NCBI GenBank assembly: GCA_963666285.1 | Contig: OY762711.1 | DNA: 64,000 nt | Source of the DNA: Sedimentisphaerales bacterium | GTDB lineage: Bacteria; Planctomycetota; Phycisphaerae; Sedimentisphaerales; SM23-30 | Strand: one strand, 5' to 3' | In this document: positions 39,302 through 47,987 of the stretch, piece after piece | How positions within the stretch are numbered: position 1 is the first letter of the stretch | How the letters are laid out: every line of letters starts with the position of its first letter | Made by a program: the position numbers and the translations under genes | The notes under the pieces: generated by a model | Databases searched by the model: none | What the model was told of the DNA's origin: nothing | Seen by the model: only the letters and a program-made list of their open reading frames with translations

Positions 39302-39380
39302 ATTTGTCCAGCTTTGTTGTCGCTTTATCCGCCACCAGTATTTTCATTTGTTCAATTGCTATCTTATTTACCCTGTATTT
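39302..39380. repeat. 80-bp direct repeat, copy 1
   Basis: atttgtccagctttgttgtcg...ccaccagtattttcatttg...cctgtattta recurs at 41167-41246. Confidence 0.85.
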
Positions 39381-39494
39381 ATGACGATTTCGCCATAAAT
39401 AAAATCTAATAGATTGTTTTCCTTAACCATTTGAAGACCAATTGTTTAACGGCATTGTTCTTTTGAGATATTTGTTTTGTTTGGTTGATTTCGA

Positions 39495-40754: not shown

Positions 40755-41168
40755 TTAATCTTCTTCGGCAATATCCTGTTTCCATTCATACCATTTAGAG
40801 TAATCATGACCATAGTCTTTGCCGGAATATCTTTCAAGTTCAGATACTATATGATCAAGTGTGTTATTGATTTTTTTGTTAGCTTCTGATATTTGGTCAT
40901 TTAGCTCTGGATTAATTGGAAATATTTGTATCTCGATTATTTTATTAACAAAATTAATAGCATCTTGCTTGTTGTTGATTTTTGGGTTTTCAATTTGCCA
41001 GTTATTGATTTTTTTAGCTAAATCAATACACATCGGTGTGTATTTGTATTTTATAAACCAGTATTTGGCAATAACAACTATTATTATAAATGTAATTATT
41101 GCTGACAGGACAGTAATCGCTAATTTTTTTAATTTGCTATACATTATACCGGCTATCGCACCTCTCAT
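40755..41168 (-). CDS. Hypothetical protein, AT-rich, with N-terminal TM helix
   Basis: ORF ends SGKDYGHDYSKWYEW; true start may be MYSKLKK. Confidence 0.6.
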   Translation of the reverse strand: MRGAIAGIMYSKLKKLAITVLSAIITFIIIVVIAKYWFIKYKYTPMCIDLAKKINNWQIENPKINNKQDAINFVNKIIEIQIFPINPELNDQISEANKKINNTLDHIVSELERYSGKDYGHDYSKWYEWKQDIAEED

Positions 41169-41246
41169 TTGTCCAGCTTTGTTGTCGGCTTATCTGCCAC
41201 CAGTATTTTCATTTGCTCAATCGCTATTTTATTTAGCCTGTATTTA
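41167..41246. repeat. 80-bp direct repeat, copy 2
   Basis: Near-identical to 39302-39380. Confidence 0.85.
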
Positions 41247-41440: not shown

Positions 41441-42349
41441 TCACCAAAACATCATCCCCGTCCCCACAACTGCGATAATCGCCCCGATTATCTCCCGCAA
41501 ATTGACCTTTTCCTTGAACATGAAAATCGAAAACGGGATAATCGTCACCGGTATTATTGACATAATGGTACACGCGATGCCGGTCTCCGTCTTTTGTATC
41601 GCCAATAATGACAGGGATACCCCGATAAAAGTACCAAAAAATGTGCTGAACAGCACAAGTGCCATCAATTTCGGCTTGGTTACCAGCTCTCTCATCTGTC
41701 TCCACGGCCTTATATATATGGCTACCAGCGTAAACCCTGTCATGCCGGCAATTATTCTTATATGGGTTGCCGCTAATGCACTGTATTCCTCGCCCATCCC
41801 GTATTTGCTCAATATCAGACCTATTGCCTGGCCCAGCATGCCGATCGTCGCATATACTACCCCCTTAATCGGATGCTTAAACTTCTTTGTCCCGTTTTCG
41901 CGGGTCAATATTACCGCCGACACCCCGGAAGTTGTCATTATCATCCCGAAGATATGACGCATCGCCAGGGTCTCATCCAAAAGGAAATACCCGATAACTG
42001 CCGCGACCGGCGGCACAAGCGAGTATATCAGCATCGATGTTCTCGATCCGATTATCGAAAATGCCTTTAGCAGGAACAGATCGCCTATCACAAAACCGAT
42101 CAGCCCGGAAGCGAATAGCCAGAACCAGCATGAACCTGACGCATCTGTCGGAATTGCCAGCCCGCGGATAAAAAATGAAGAAACAGTGAAGAATATGAAC
42201 GCCAGGTACATCCTGAATATGTTTATCGCCAGCGTACTGGCTCTTTTAGATATATATTCCGAACATAAACATGTAATTGTCCAGAGTATTACCGTTACCA
42301 ATGCGGCTATCTCGCCCGTTTTACTCGTTATTGTTTCAGATATTTCCAT
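41441..42349 (-). CDS. DMT/EamA-family transporter
   Basis: About 10 TM helices in two repeats; SGLIGFVIGD, LLDETL and FKEKVNLREIIGA. Confidence 0.9.
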   Translation of the reverse strand: MEISETITSKTGEIAALVTVILWTITCLCSEYISKRASTLAINIFRMYLAFIFFTVSSFFIRGLAIPTDASGSCWFWLFASGLIGFVIGDLFLLKAFSIIGSRTSMLIYSLVPPVAAVIGYFLLDETLAMRHIFGMIMTTSGVSAVILTRENGTKKFKHPIKGVVYATIGMLGQAIGLILSKYGMGEEYSALAATHIRIIAGMTGFTLVAIYIRPWRQMRELVTKPKLMALVLFSTFFGTFIGVSLSLLAIQKTETGIACTIMSIIPVTIIPFSIFMFKEKVNLREIIGAIIAVVGTGMMFW

Positions 42350-42442
42350 ATAGACTGTTTTTGGGGTAAATGGTTGCTGACTAGTGTCTTTATCTGCAAT
42401 TCGGCATTATACCTTATCGTTGTATAAATAATGAAGAATATT

Positions 42443-42624
42443 TTAGAGCACTTTAATATCTTCTGTTCCGATTTATGCCTCTGTGAGGACGAGGCTGACG
42501 AAGAAGAAAACACAGAAATATTGATATATTACGAGTATTTCTGATGAAGTCAGCCGAAGCCGCAACAGGCAAAAAGCGAACACGCCACAAAGTGATGCGA
42601 AGCATAATAATTAAATTGCTCTAA
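42443..42624. mobile_element. MITE family 2, copy 1
   Basis: Terminal inverted repeats TTAGAGCACTTTAAT / ATTAAATTGCTCTAA; internal sequence shared with 55505-55659. Confidence 0.8.
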
Positions 42625-42625
42625 T

Positions 42626-42659
42626 AGAAAAGGCTATGAAGCAGTCAGCTTCATAGCCT
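42626..42659 (-). terminator. Rho-independent terminator after the SEC-C gene
   Basis: Perfect 12-bp stem AGGCTATGAAGC/GCTTCATAGCCT followed by T residues on the minus strand. Confidence 0.8.
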
Positions 42660-42666
42660 GTATTAG

Positions 42667-42909
42667 TTAACGTGAATATTCATGGCGGTTTACGCCGTCA
42701 AAATCTGCCGGTCTTCAGACAGCATTTCTTGAAATAACCTCCCGCTGCCACATGGGCACAAGTCATTTCTACCGAGCTTTTCTTCCAGCAGCTTCTCGCC
42801 GTGAACGACTCTGGTTCCCTTTTTAACTTTTGTCTCTGATGGATATCCTCTGCGACGTTTGCTCATTGGCTGGTTAAAAGCAGTCCTTTTGATAATTATT
42901 TCTGGCCAT
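42667..42909 (-). CDS. Small SEC-C motif zinc-binding protein encoded across three +1 frame transitions
   Basis: GGAGG-6nt-ATG at 42909. Segments read [11 protein letters not shown] | [48 protein letters not shown] | [10 protein letters not shown] | [10 protein letters not shown]. Confidence 0.75.
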
Positions 42910-43161
42910 GATACACCTCCGTAAAAAAGAGTATTCTTTCCATCCGGACACTTATCCGGATTTGCATGTATTGTATATGATTACTGCTGTATTGGAATAG
43001 AAAACTCCAATTATAACTGTTTTTTTAGAATATTACTCTATTGTTAAGCATAATGGATTAAATAATCTTCGTAATATCCTGTTTCGCAATACAAAATAAA
43101 TTTTTAGCTAGCCGCCTGCCCTGAGTTCATCGAAGGGCCGCGGTATTTCTTCCCTAATATT

Positions 43162-43201
43162 AAAAAAAAGCCGCGAATGCTTCTTCACATCCACGGCTTT
43201 T
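43162..43201 (-). terminator. Terminator after gpmI
   Basis: AAAAGCCG...CGGCTTTT stem; the A-run on plus is a U-tract on minus. Confidence 0.65.
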
Positions 43202-43266
43202 ATGTATTTTGAAAATAGTTGTCGCGTTAGCGACACCGCAATTTTTCACTTTTCATTATTCGCTTT

Positions 43267-44832
43267 TCACTTCAAAAGGCTTTCACCGGTCATCTCTTCC
43301 GGCTTCTCCAGTCCCATAAGATCCAGGCACGTTGGTACAACATCAGCCAGTCTGCCGCCTTCACGCAGCTTGCTGTTCTTGTGCTCTTCATCCACAATGA
43401 TCAGCGGCACAGGGAAAGTCGTATGAGCGGTATATGGCCCGTTTGTACTCTCATCCCACATCAGCTCCAGGTTGCCGTGGTCCGCTGTTATCAACGCAGA
43501 GCCGCCGAGTGCCTTAACCTTATCGATTACCTTGCCAACACATTCATCAACCACTTCAGCTGCCTTAACCGCTGCATCCATTACGCCTGTATGCCCGACC
43601 ATGTCCGGGTTAGCGAAGTTTACGATAAATACATCGTATTCCTTACTGTCCAGTTTCTCAAGAACGGTATCGCACACCTCATAGGCCGACATCTCAGGTT
43701 TCAGGTCATATGTTTCCACCTTTGGCGATGGTACCAGTATCCTGTCTTCCAGTTCAAATGGATCTTCCTTATTATCATTGAAGAAGAAGGTCACATGAGC
43801 ATATTTTTCTGTCTCGGCACATCTGAACTGTTTCAGCCCATCAACACTTAGCAGTTCACCGGCTATGTTTTTCATCTTCGGCGGCTTGGGAAACGCCACT
43901 TTCGCCGGAATTGTCTTGTCATATTCTGTCATACAGATAAAGTCAACTTCAGGCTTGCTGCCGCGATCGAAACCGTCAAAGTCGGCATCAACAAACGCAC
44001 GTGTCAGTTCGCGAGGCCTGTCACCGCGGAAATTAAAGAATATTACCGCGTCACCATCATCAATTGTGGCGATTGGCTTACCGTCGGCTCCGACAATATT
44101 GGCCGGCTCGATAAATTCATCTGTCTTGCCGTCATCATAACTTGCCTGCATATATTCAATTGCATCTGTTGCAGTGGCACCTTTACCATGACGTATACAG
44201 CTGAACGCTCTTTCTACACGCTCCCATCTCTTGTCACGGTCCATCCCGTAGAATCTGCCGCCGACGGATGCTATTTTTCCGCAGCCGATCTCATCCAGTT
44301 TCGCCTGGATAGCGGTCAAATATCCTTTACCGCTGGTCGGAGGACTGTCGCGACCGTCCATCAGCGGATGAAGATATACTTCTTCCAGCCCGTTATCTTT
44401 ACACATCTGAACGAATGCATACAGGTGACCCAGCAGAGAATGCACTCCGATATCACTGGCAAGCCCGGTCAGATGGAGTTTGCTGCCATTTTTCTTACAA
44501 TTTGCGATCGCATCAAGCACAATCTGGTTCTTCTGGAACTCGCCGTCACGAATTGCCTTGGTCAGACGCACTGATTCCTGGTAAACTACCCGGCCGGCAC
44601 CTATATTCTGATGACCTACTTCACTGTTGCCCATGGTTCCATCTGGCAAACCAACGTCTTCACCGCTGGTCGCGATTAGAACATTTGGGTATTCTGCTCT
44701 AAGTTTGTCATCATAAGGCGTATTTGCTTTACGGGTTGCATCATATTTATACCATTCAGGGTTTGGGTTATGGCCCCAGCCGTCACGGATAATTAGTACA
44801 AAAGGTTTTGTTCTGAGTTTTATTTCTGTCAT
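43267..44832 (-). CDS. gpmI: 2,3-bisphosphoglycerate-independent phosphoglycerate mutase
   Basis: IRDGWG, MGNSEVGH, MDRDKRW, AETEKYAHVTFFFN, NPDMVGH and TADHGN. Confidence 0.96.
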   Translation of the reverse strand: MTEIKLRTKPFVLIIRDGWGHNPNPEWYKYDATRKANTPYDDKLRAEYPNVLIATSGEDVGLPDGTMGNSEVGHQNIGAGRVVYQESVRLTKAIRDGEFQKNQIVLDAIANCKKNGSKLHLTGLASDIGVHSLLGHLYAFVQMCKDNGLEEVYLHPLMDGRDSPPTSGKGYLTAIQAKLDEIGCGKIASVGGRFYGMDRDKRWERVERAFSCIRHGKGATATDAIEYMQASYDDGKTDEFIEPANIVGADGKPIATIDDGDAVIFFNFRGDRPRELTRAFVDADFDGFDRGSKPEVDFICMTEYDKTIPAKVAFPKPPKMKNIAGELLSVDGLKQFRCAETEKYAHVTFFFNDNKEDPFELEDRILVPSPKVETYDLKPEMSAYEVCDTVLEKLDSKEYDVFIVNFANPDMVGHTGVMDAAVKAAEVVDECVGKVIDKVKALGGSALITADHGNLELMWDESTNGPYTAHTTFPVPLIIVDEEHKNSKLREGGRLADVVPTCLDLMGLEKPEEMTGESLLK

Positions 44833-47193: not shown

Positions 47194-47639
47194 TTCTTCA
47201 TACTTATTATCTCACGTTTGTTTTTCTTTTTTTAATCTTTAGTTTTTATCTTTTTTCATCTCTTCATTTTAAATTTTAAGAGTATTTTTCTTTGTTGCTT
47301 TCTCTTTTTACTTTTAGTTTTTAATTTTTTTATCAATAAAATTGTTATTTCACTAAAAGTTTTTAAACAAAAAGAAGTTTTTTTTTAAGTTTTTTATAAA
47401 AAATGACAATAAAGGTATTGTGAAAGAAAAACGTAGGGAAAGTATGTTTTCATTTACGTTTTGTTGAAGGGGATGAAATTAAGAAGTGTGTTATTTTGAA
47501 AAATGAATATGTTTTATCGTAATTATTGTGATATTTCTTTTTGACATAATAATTATTGATAATTAGTATTAGTGTTTATAGTGATTATTATGTTTTTTTT
47601 ATTACACGTTTACCGTTGCCGGAAGGAGGTAACTCAACC

Positions 47640-47987
47640 ATGGCAGTAAAGAAAAAAGTTAAAAAAGTAGCTAAGAAAGCTGCAAAGAAAGCAGTTAAAA
47701 AGGTAGCTAAGAAAAAGGTAGCTAAGAAAAAGGTAGCTAAGAAAAAGGTAGCTAAGAAACCTGCGGCTAAGAAAGTTGCTAAGAAAAAAGTAGCTAAGAA
47801 GGCTGTAAAGAAAGCAACTAAGAAAGTTGCTAAGAAAAAGGTAGCTAAGAAACCTGCGGCTAAGAAAGTTGCTAAGAAAAAAGTAGCTAAGAAAGCTGTA
47901 AAGAAAGCAACTAAGAAAGTAGCTAAAAAAGCTGTTAAAAAAGTTGCTAAGAAAAAAGTAGCTAAAAAAGCTGCTAAGAAAAAATAA
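47640..47987 (+). CDS. Histone H1-like Lys/Ala-rich protein
   Basis: ATG 47640 follows GGAGG; 115 aa made almost entirely of KKVAK/KKAVK/KPAAK repeats. Confidence 0.88.
   Translation: MAVKKKVKKVAKKAAKKAVKKVAKKKVAKKKVAKKKVAKKPAAKKVAKKKVAKKAVKKATKKVAKKKVAKKPAAKKVAKKKVAKKAVKKATKKVAKKAVKKVAKKKVAKKAAKKK

Follow-up and report, generated by a model that had tools for sequence, protein, structure and literature searches.

As far as our literature search reached, known bacterial programmed frameshifts use one site per gene, and multi-shift genes were previously known from mitochondria and ciliates. The available text of PMC5009743 names retroviruses, Euplotes and mitochondria as holders of genes with several shifts, and describes UUU_Ynn as +1-prone in bacteria. 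In prfB the +1 slip takes place in the P site at one fixed CUU_UGA_C site. For FseA of the Mesorhizobium ICE, a single UUUC site shifts 4-13%, and function requires the full product, as given in the accessible part of PMC4755241. A shortage of charged Gln-tRNA makes tRNA-Phe slip +1 at a UUU-CAA site, as found by peptide sequencing (PMC3617221, available part).

We analysed a 64,000-nt stretch of DNA from a Sedimentisphaerales bacterium (assembly GCA_963666285.1, contig OY762711.1), here called the window. A first-pass annotation of its letters had claimed, on the minus strand, a hidden SEC-C zinc-finger gene that needs three +1 frameshifts, one at each of its Phe codons. The coordinates and motifs given there are all exact (GGAGG-ATG, TTT-TAA, TTT-C, TTT-TGA-C, the final TAA, the words resembling a Shine-Dalgarno (SD) sequence, and the hairpin), and the parts of the locus, in window positions, are as follows.

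42942..42961, no strand: inverted repeat of 7 bp, 5' of the SD, the sole match to its pattern on contig C1
42916..42920, minus strand: SD GGAGG of the true start, anti-SD pairing -10.8 kcal/mol
42909, minus strand: start ATG, spaced 6 nt after GGAGG (42920-42916)
42877..42909, minus strand: segment 1, 11 codons, from ATG to Phe11
42874..42879, minus strand: slip site 1, TTT then in-frame TAA
42732..42875, minus strand: segment 2, basic core and first half of the SEC-C knuckle, including the internal ATG at 42866 without an SD
42738..42743, minus strand: SD-like GGGAGG, 3 nt 5' of site 2 in prfB geometry, particular to the window copy
42716..42770, minus strand: SEC-C metal-binding knuckle (predicted), residues 47-64, complete only after slip 2
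42731..42734, minus strand: slip site 2, TTT-C with CAA in the A site, within the SEC-C motif
42697..42703, minus strand: slip site 3, TTT-TGA-C
42690..42692, minus strand: stop met when slip 2 fails, 31 nt before the first G-C pair of the hairpin
42667..42699, minus strand: segment 4, conserved tail and final TAA (ends at 42667)
42631..42659, minus strand: intrinsic-terminator-like hairpin with a T tail, 7-8 nt past the final stop
41441..42349, minus strand: EamA/DMT transporter gene, the next co-oriented gene downstream

When each TTTY is read as a single four-base step, the gene yields the predicted product of 79 residues, whose only Phe residues, 11, 59 and 69, fall at the three junctions. 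Apart from the three slip sites, no TTT-Y word occurs in any frame of the 243-nt gene, and the rough chance of three random breaks all falling at in-frame TTT-Y words is ~1e-5. At all three sites the P-site word is UUU-U or UUU-C, able to re-pair at +1; the A site holds a stop codon at sites 1 and 3 and CAA at site 2. The knuckle had been said to be complete only after shift 2, and the Pfam SEC-C model (PF02810, cut-off 20.4 bits) bears this out, with 38.8 bits and 18/19 positions for the shifted product versus 28.8 bits and 14/19 positions for the unshifted internal ORF. An Rfam scan of 42400-43300 shows no structured RNA family at gathering score, and a sigma-70 scan finds 0 promoter-like sites.

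Multi-copy genomic repeats lie on either side of the gene (window 42461-42626 and 43104-43159), marked by depth spikes and many contigs. Elsewhere in the window, an 80-nt direct repeat (39302-39381 and 41167-41246; 91% identical, 1865 nt apart) flanks a 360-aa gene, each copy lying at the start of a small minus-strand ORF or 5' of it; the pattern resembles that of a cassette insertion or a duplication. A 143-aa Lys/Ala-rich repeat protein, which we take to be histone H1-like, is encoded at 47556-47987.

The breaks are present in read-derived contigs, which are gap-free across the gene. Contigs of two runs from one sample, possibly the source (X1 and X2, depth 46.5 and 29.3), cover 42578-43140 without a single differing letter or gap. 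A second-study contig (X4, depth 2.2) covers 42720-42986, is gap-free inside the gene and bridges site 1, reaching only ~11 letters past site 2. Contigs rather than raw reads were compared, so rare variants would escape notice. The assembly's miaA (G000:C1:2456113-2456960, L215) is split, and the base it lacks is present in contigs from three runs; the split is therefore a one-base assembly error, and the same runs are able to reveal assembly indels, which makes miaA a positive control. Given this error, any further frameshift that the assembly seems to show should be verified. A broken miaA is likewise ruled out as a cause of high slipping.

Of 1250 database candidates, 1243 are relatives of the shifted product, and most of the listed relatives end at the residue equivalent to site 3, with an out-of-frame SD and start upstream. 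An alignment of the 41-residue core gives an estimated ~3000 matching genome stretches and ~5600 metagenome stretches. The best 80 of 584 confirmed genome matches and the best 80 of 587 metagenome matches were kept for analysis, and the kept loci are the closest matches, not a random sample. Full-product searches retrieved 29 loci and the others were found by the core alone (one via a core DNA pattern), a retrieval that makes no selection on frame outside the core and selects against shifts inside it. Duplicates (L002, L114, L118, L205), a secA gene (L003), knuckle-only matches (L206-L212) and the anchorless L102 were left out; removal of 5 identical anchors reduced 200 to 195, and removal of one spurious anchor left 194 loci, the window locus included. 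The 76 named loci span 10 phyla, and 53 of them belong to Planctomycetota. Cultured carriers are Stieleria magnilauensis TBK1r, Brevifollis gellanilyticus NBRC 108608 and Lacipirellula parvula. Occurrence is patchy: the gene is carried by 28/401 genomes of the window's phylum, by 4/151 and 5/301 in two other groups, and by 0/24 genomes of the window's own family. IMG/VR yields 3 full-core matches among 10 loci, and a plasmid collection yields no match at E 1e-8. A literature search covering listings and abstract starts, with most subscription papers outside its coverage, found no description of a multi-frameshift SEC-C family. These loci form a real multi-frameshift gene family, apparently undescribed as far as that coverage reached.

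The frame of the core-to-tail region was examined at the 194 loci by a symmetric frameshift-aware alignment with equal penalties for +1 and -1. The results show 200 frame events, 199 of which are +1, and exactly one event in 177/194 loci. A conserved in-frame UUU-Y word, the hallmark of the UUU-Y class, stands at the junction in 187 of the 199 +1 events; 5 fall at CTT-Y, 3 at AAA-A and 4 at none of these. Starts for the frame test were picked by SD strength with frame ignored (176 loci). Start and core lie in different frames in 161/176 loci, and the TTT-Y rule reaches the core in 170/176. Core, last ligands and tail are joined in one reading in 143/176 loci by the TTT-Y rule and in 0/176 by the standard code, and the next-best four-base word restores only 12/176. 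At site 2, TTT-Y is found in 85/86 shifted loci versus 1/107 unshifted loci; at site 3 it is found in 96/103 versus 0/80. A further last site, two codons before the end and absent from the window copy, is shifted in 153/177 loci. Homologues thus keep the extra bases at matching sites, which supports a real gene needing serial +1 shifts at UUU-Y.

Among 162 fully resolved loci, two slips are needed in 26, three in 108 and four in 27; the remaining row, a zero count (L204), is a misparse with three slips on inspection, and no uninterrupted member is found. Likewise, 0/352 database proteins are in frame from the knuckle through the terminal R-E/D. TTT is depleted where a slip would harm, at the GF-P motif (11 seen versus 37.9 expected in 88 loci), and TTT-Y is read normally across the rest of the window genome. 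The positions of the slips are not fixed as the first-pass annotation had them, because the site combination of the window copy occurs in just 7/162 loci and most members use the last site that it lacks. Its proposal of a shift at every Phe codon applies to the window copy; homologues have many unshifted Phe codons, including an in-frame TTT-C without a shift at a GF-P motif in 13/184 loci, and a few last-site TTT-T words are unshifted too. Taken together, these data make programmed serial +1 decoding in this family highly probable.

The A-site codons at the slips are mixed (TGA/TAA, CAA, CGA, TTT). TTT-type shifts at site 3 abut TGA in 88/96 cases, and those at site 2 have CAA in the A site in 62/85 and a stop codon in 19/85. 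In L028, L029 and L030, which lie in tRNA arrays, the internal Phe slips are replaced by +1 at AAA-A (Lys), with three slips overall still. Three slips are reached through many site combinations, which suggests selection on slip number. A tree test of site compensation gave 4 and 7 independent pairs on supported branches, which is not significant on a poorly resolved gene tree, and the constant slip number could reflect descent.

The shifted frames remain conserved at the protein level. The synonymous share of single-base codon differences reaches 0.90 in the core; past shifted sites 2 and 3 it is 0.70-0.73, and the other frames give 0.08-0.29. In the N-terminal segment it is 0.19, with no coding-selection signal; across the family this segment has 7-21 codons, mostly 10-14, and is weakly conserved and acidic. 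The prfB-like SD holds for site 2 of the window copy, where anti-SD pairing is -10.9, and fails as a family feature, with pairing of -5 kcal/mol or stronger at 22/86 shifted site-2 positions and 10/158 site-1 positions (mean at site 2, -3.95 shifted versus -2.27 unshifted). Conserved SD stimulators were rejected because few family sites pair with the anti-SD.

The core is 71-85% identical between distant loci, and the terminal Arg is kept via both AGR and CGN codons. The four knuckle ligands form a predicted metal site. In a structure model of the homologue P0020 (mean pLDDT 63; knuckle part 75-83), a low-confidence basic N-terminal half is followed by a short hairpin and a confident knuckle, an arrangement compatible with RNA or ribosome binding. 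The NCBIfam models of SecA, YecA and YchJ score 11-33 bits against cut-offs of 68-267, matching the knuckle only, and membership in these families was rejected since their specific domains before the knuckle are missing. Nor is any fusion to other domains evident; the 10 long matches inspected of 120 listed read as out-of-frame or tRNA-derived extensions. ESM Atlas contains unnamed SEC-C clusters only and no usable match to the basic core alone, and a search of solved structures gives knuckle matches only, with bL32 at E 0.2 not counted as evidence; neither resource offers a relative of known function beyond the knuckle. Pfam and NCBIfam show no similarity of the product to release factors.

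The link to translation stress that the first-pass annotation had proposed is supported by the neighbouring genes, whose frequencies are raw counts within the family. RNA-repair genes lie within ~3 kb in 50/194 loci, at least three tRNA genes in 22/194 and either in 67/194; the other 127/194, the window's included, have neither repair gene nor tRNA array in the available DNA, many of these stretches being short. The repair genes counted are HD/AAA_33 kinase, RNA ligase, Hen1, RlaP, Thg1, Ro60/TROVE, Pnkp and Band 7, the last presumably slipin-type; 4/50 loci depend on Band 7 alone. Among the further neighbours are EF-Tu, EF-G, RsgA, ABC-F-type ATPase, GNAT, APH and DinB/DnaE-type genes. In L066 (Acidobacteriota), L135, L137 and L161 the gene directly precedes a DinB/ImuB-type gene, which in L066 is followed by a DnaE-type gene. 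In L203 (IMGVR_UViG_3300020195_000410) it lies between an EF-Tu gene and a 21-tRNA array (Leu, Ser, Phe, Tyr only) with three tRNA-Phe genes. An upstream GAAC[C/T]-N15/16-[G/T]GTC motif, which we take to resemble an ECF-sigma promoter, is present in 59/175 loci (27/45 repair loci) versus 3/165 and 0/162 in controls.

The window copy lacks this motif and precedes an EamA gene. Elsewhere in the window genome, rtcB and a Band 7 gene stand together with a tRNA cluster (G000:C1:5223474-5229866); a TGGCAC-N5-TTG motif upstream resembles a sigma-54 promoter. RtcB was uninformative as a co-occurrence marker, being also present in 4 same-family relatives without the gene. In Anabaena, ribosome-targeting antibiotics induce not only long tRNA arrays, by 100-1000-fold, but rtcB as well (PMC8421152, available portion).

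We somewhat favour a reading of these sequences in which a serial UUU-Y +1 gate is opened by translation damage, with the basic SEC-C knuckle protein as its main output. Peptidyl-tRNA-Phe would re-pair from UUU to UUY while the A site awaits a slow ligand, which would be release factor at sites 1 and 3 and Gln-tRNA at site 2. For a slip chance p per site the yield would be ~p cubed, or ~0.006-0.2% at the 4-13% of FseA by our own arithmetic, and since serial sites multiply, the gene would be nearly silent until slipping rises. Loss or cleavage of tRNAs, stalling at termination and damage to the ribosome could each raise the slip chance, and the mixed A-site codons (stops, CAA, CGA, TTT) point to general damage more than to a single ligand. 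Because the protein is conserved, it is likely the main output, a predicted extended basic chain with a metal knuckle that may bind RNA or the ribosome. A point against a damage gate is that, under heavy slipping, yield would be lost at those in-frame TTT-Y words where the frame has to be kept.

Where the terminator is close, the gene may have a second output, read-through into downstream genes. By a strict test, a T-tailed hairpin follows the gene in 45/173 loci, and it starts 0-12 nt past the final stop in 29/45 of these (median 11 nt), compared with 4/15 neighbouring ORFs and 18/253 long ORFs of the window genome (median 31 nt), the genome control being one organism and long genes only. When a slip fails, the stop that is met lies farther from the hairpin, with family medians of 47 nt for site 2, 44 nt for site 3 and 16 nt for the last site; in the window copy the failure stops are 31 and 39 nt away versus 8 nt for the final stop. 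As in an attenuator, the stop of a short ORF thus falls within ribosome reach of a terminator, at 7-8 nt in the window copy. In E. coli, a ribosome stopping 5 nt before a terminator lowers termination from ~90% to <10%, and a ribosome halting a few bases ahead of a terminator represses it (PMC4824070, accessible text). Since only a ribosome that has made every slip would stop on top of the hairpin, the terminator spacing suggests a second output in cis, which would explain a last slip that adds two residues.

The same spacing could mean that the gene is mainly a cis-acting leader, a frameshift-counting attenuator. The all-slip ribosome would stop at most ~12 nt from the terminator and block it, downstream RNA-repair or stress genes would then be transcribed, and the peptide would act for the most part while still nascent. 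This is an unlikely reading, and yet the strongest of the rivals: it would account for a last slip kept in 153/177 loci though it adds just two residues, and a T-tailed hairpin follows the gene in 16/48 repair loci. However, a core of such identity with a complete knuckle exceeds the needs of a leader, and the terminal Arg is held through both codon families. A co-oriented ORF lies within 400 nt in only 23/45 terminator loci in the available DNA (repair genes in some, EamA in the window), and 7/40 terminator loci break the geometry, since a ribosome that fails the last slip still reaches the hairpin or goes beyond it. The downstream genes are of a wide variety, and 0/12 hairpins in tRNA arrays have a T tail.

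Somewhat less probable again is a fixed damper rather than a sensor, in which constant low slipping keeps a potent or toxic protein scarce and regulation takes place at the promoter. FseA is a precedent, since noise dampening was proposed for its UUUC slip (PMC4755241, in the part available). The shared promoter-like motif in 59/175 loci suggests transcriptional control, and the lack of an uninterrupted member among the 162 loci and 352 database proteins fits as well. Three slips at a basal rate, however, would give near-zero yield, which is hard to select unless rates can rise, and both the ligand-dependent A-site codons and the damage-response neighbours speak for a sensor.

A sensor with a single input, as the first-pass annotation in part proposed, either tRNA-Phe modification (ms2i6A37, or the G37 variants of the arrays) or release-factor shortage alone, is improbable. 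In its favour, lack of the ms2/io6 groups at A37 induces +1 P-site slippage according to the accessible part of PMC3617221, tRNA-Phe is used in 187/199 of the +1 events, and TGA abuts 88/96 of the TTT-type site-3 shifts. The tRNA-Phe(GAA) genes of arrays near the gene have G37 instead of A37 in 7/9 cases (L071, L085, L091, L149, L157, L187, L203), and would therefore escape MiaA modification and might slip more easily. On the other side, CTT-Y (5) and AAA-A (3) replace Phe sites in some members, and 62/85 of the TTT-type site-2 shifts have CAA and no stop codon. The window genome has miaA, miaB, a canonical prfB located elsewhere and one tRNA-Phe with A37, and miaA, miaB and prf genes are absent among the identified neighbours.

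It is very improbable that no ribosomal slip is involved, the frame being restored by transcriptional slippage or a four-base-reading tRNA, or the protein starting at the internal ATG. The sites are short T runs, and Met is present at the position of that ATG (42866) in 113/184 loci. But 66/86 site-2 shifts are TTT-C words and site 2 of the window copy has just three T's, too short a run for polymerase slippage. Quadruplet decoding by a frameshift-suppressor tRNA-Phe was rejected, as an 8-nt anticodon loop is found in 0/9 neighbouring tRNA-Phe genes and 0/1 in the window genome. The internal ATG is unusable as a start, as first supposed: Met is replaced in 71/184 loci, an SD precedes it in 0/108, and an internal start leaves the later slips in place. 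Finally, sequencing error or a decayed pseudogene is refuted, for although the assembly does hold single-base errors such as that in miaA, read-derived contigs are gap-free across the gene, the same sites recur in ~190 separate loci from many assemblies with 199/200 events +1, and coding selection persists 3' of the shifts.

The damage-opened gate with a protein output can be extended, with less than even confidence, to a horizontally spread translation-fidelity meter. Slip number would be held near three while positions move, which would give a roughly cubic response to ribosome or tRNA damage. The completing ribosome would release a ribosome- or tRNA-binding knuckle protein and block the terminator before RNA-repair genes, and frame loss itself would be the stress signal. 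If true, an obligatory series of 2-4 slips would show that cells can use reading-frame loss as a thresholded signal. The gene is a ready natural reporter for the causes of +1 slipping in vivo. The family accounts for thousands of fragments wrongly annotated as 'SEC-C / YecA / YchJ', and it draws attention to a small, unstudied protein of RNA-repair operons and tRNA arrays.

Compared with known SEC-C proteins (the SecA C-terminus, YecA and YchJ), the family has a complete PF02810 knuckle and none of their other domains. The 'Preprotein translocase subunit SecA' frameshift cluster of Antonov et al. 2013 is also distinct; in the accessible text of PMC3711429, the tested inserts resemble secA 3' ends that enter the next gene, and those inserts do not contain the basic core of the family.

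Among recoding systems, Perkinsus mitochondria and Euplotes likewise make several frame changes per gene (PMC5009743, available text), but these are organellar or eukaryotic and code-like, whereas here the series is confined to one small gene. The ermCL leader, described in the same available text, is alike in that a frameshift in a short ORF moves the end point of the ribosome and hence alters downstream expression (PMC5009743). It differs in using one ketolide-induced shift that controls initiation, whereas the family has several +1 slips, a conserved domain and a predicted effect in cis. The E. coli argI error and Yersinia YopN-TyeA use the same UUU_Ynn word, which works without a stop codon (PMC5009743, accessible portion), but their use is incidental or single-site and includes no obligatory series. 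The Mesorhizobium ICE msi172-msi171 frameshift (FseA) shares the UUUC word and the re-pairing of tRNA-Phe from UUU to UUC (PMC4755241, part available). FseA, however, has a single site, fused single-ORF variants exist, and its product is a transcription activator, whereas the family has serial sites and no uninterrupted member was found, its slips being read from sequence alone. With prfB the family shares a +1 P-site slip at a Y-UU-U word, often before a stop codon, and expression that is conditional on the slip, and the window copy further has its SD 3 nt before site 2. In contrast to the fixed tRNA-Leu site of prfB, the family has 2-4 movable sites with tRNA-Phe, its SD is not conserved, many of its A-site codons are sense codons, and its product is not the sensed factor. 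The family would use a +1 slip as a gate in the manner of prfB and FseA, but it is not a prfB-type member.
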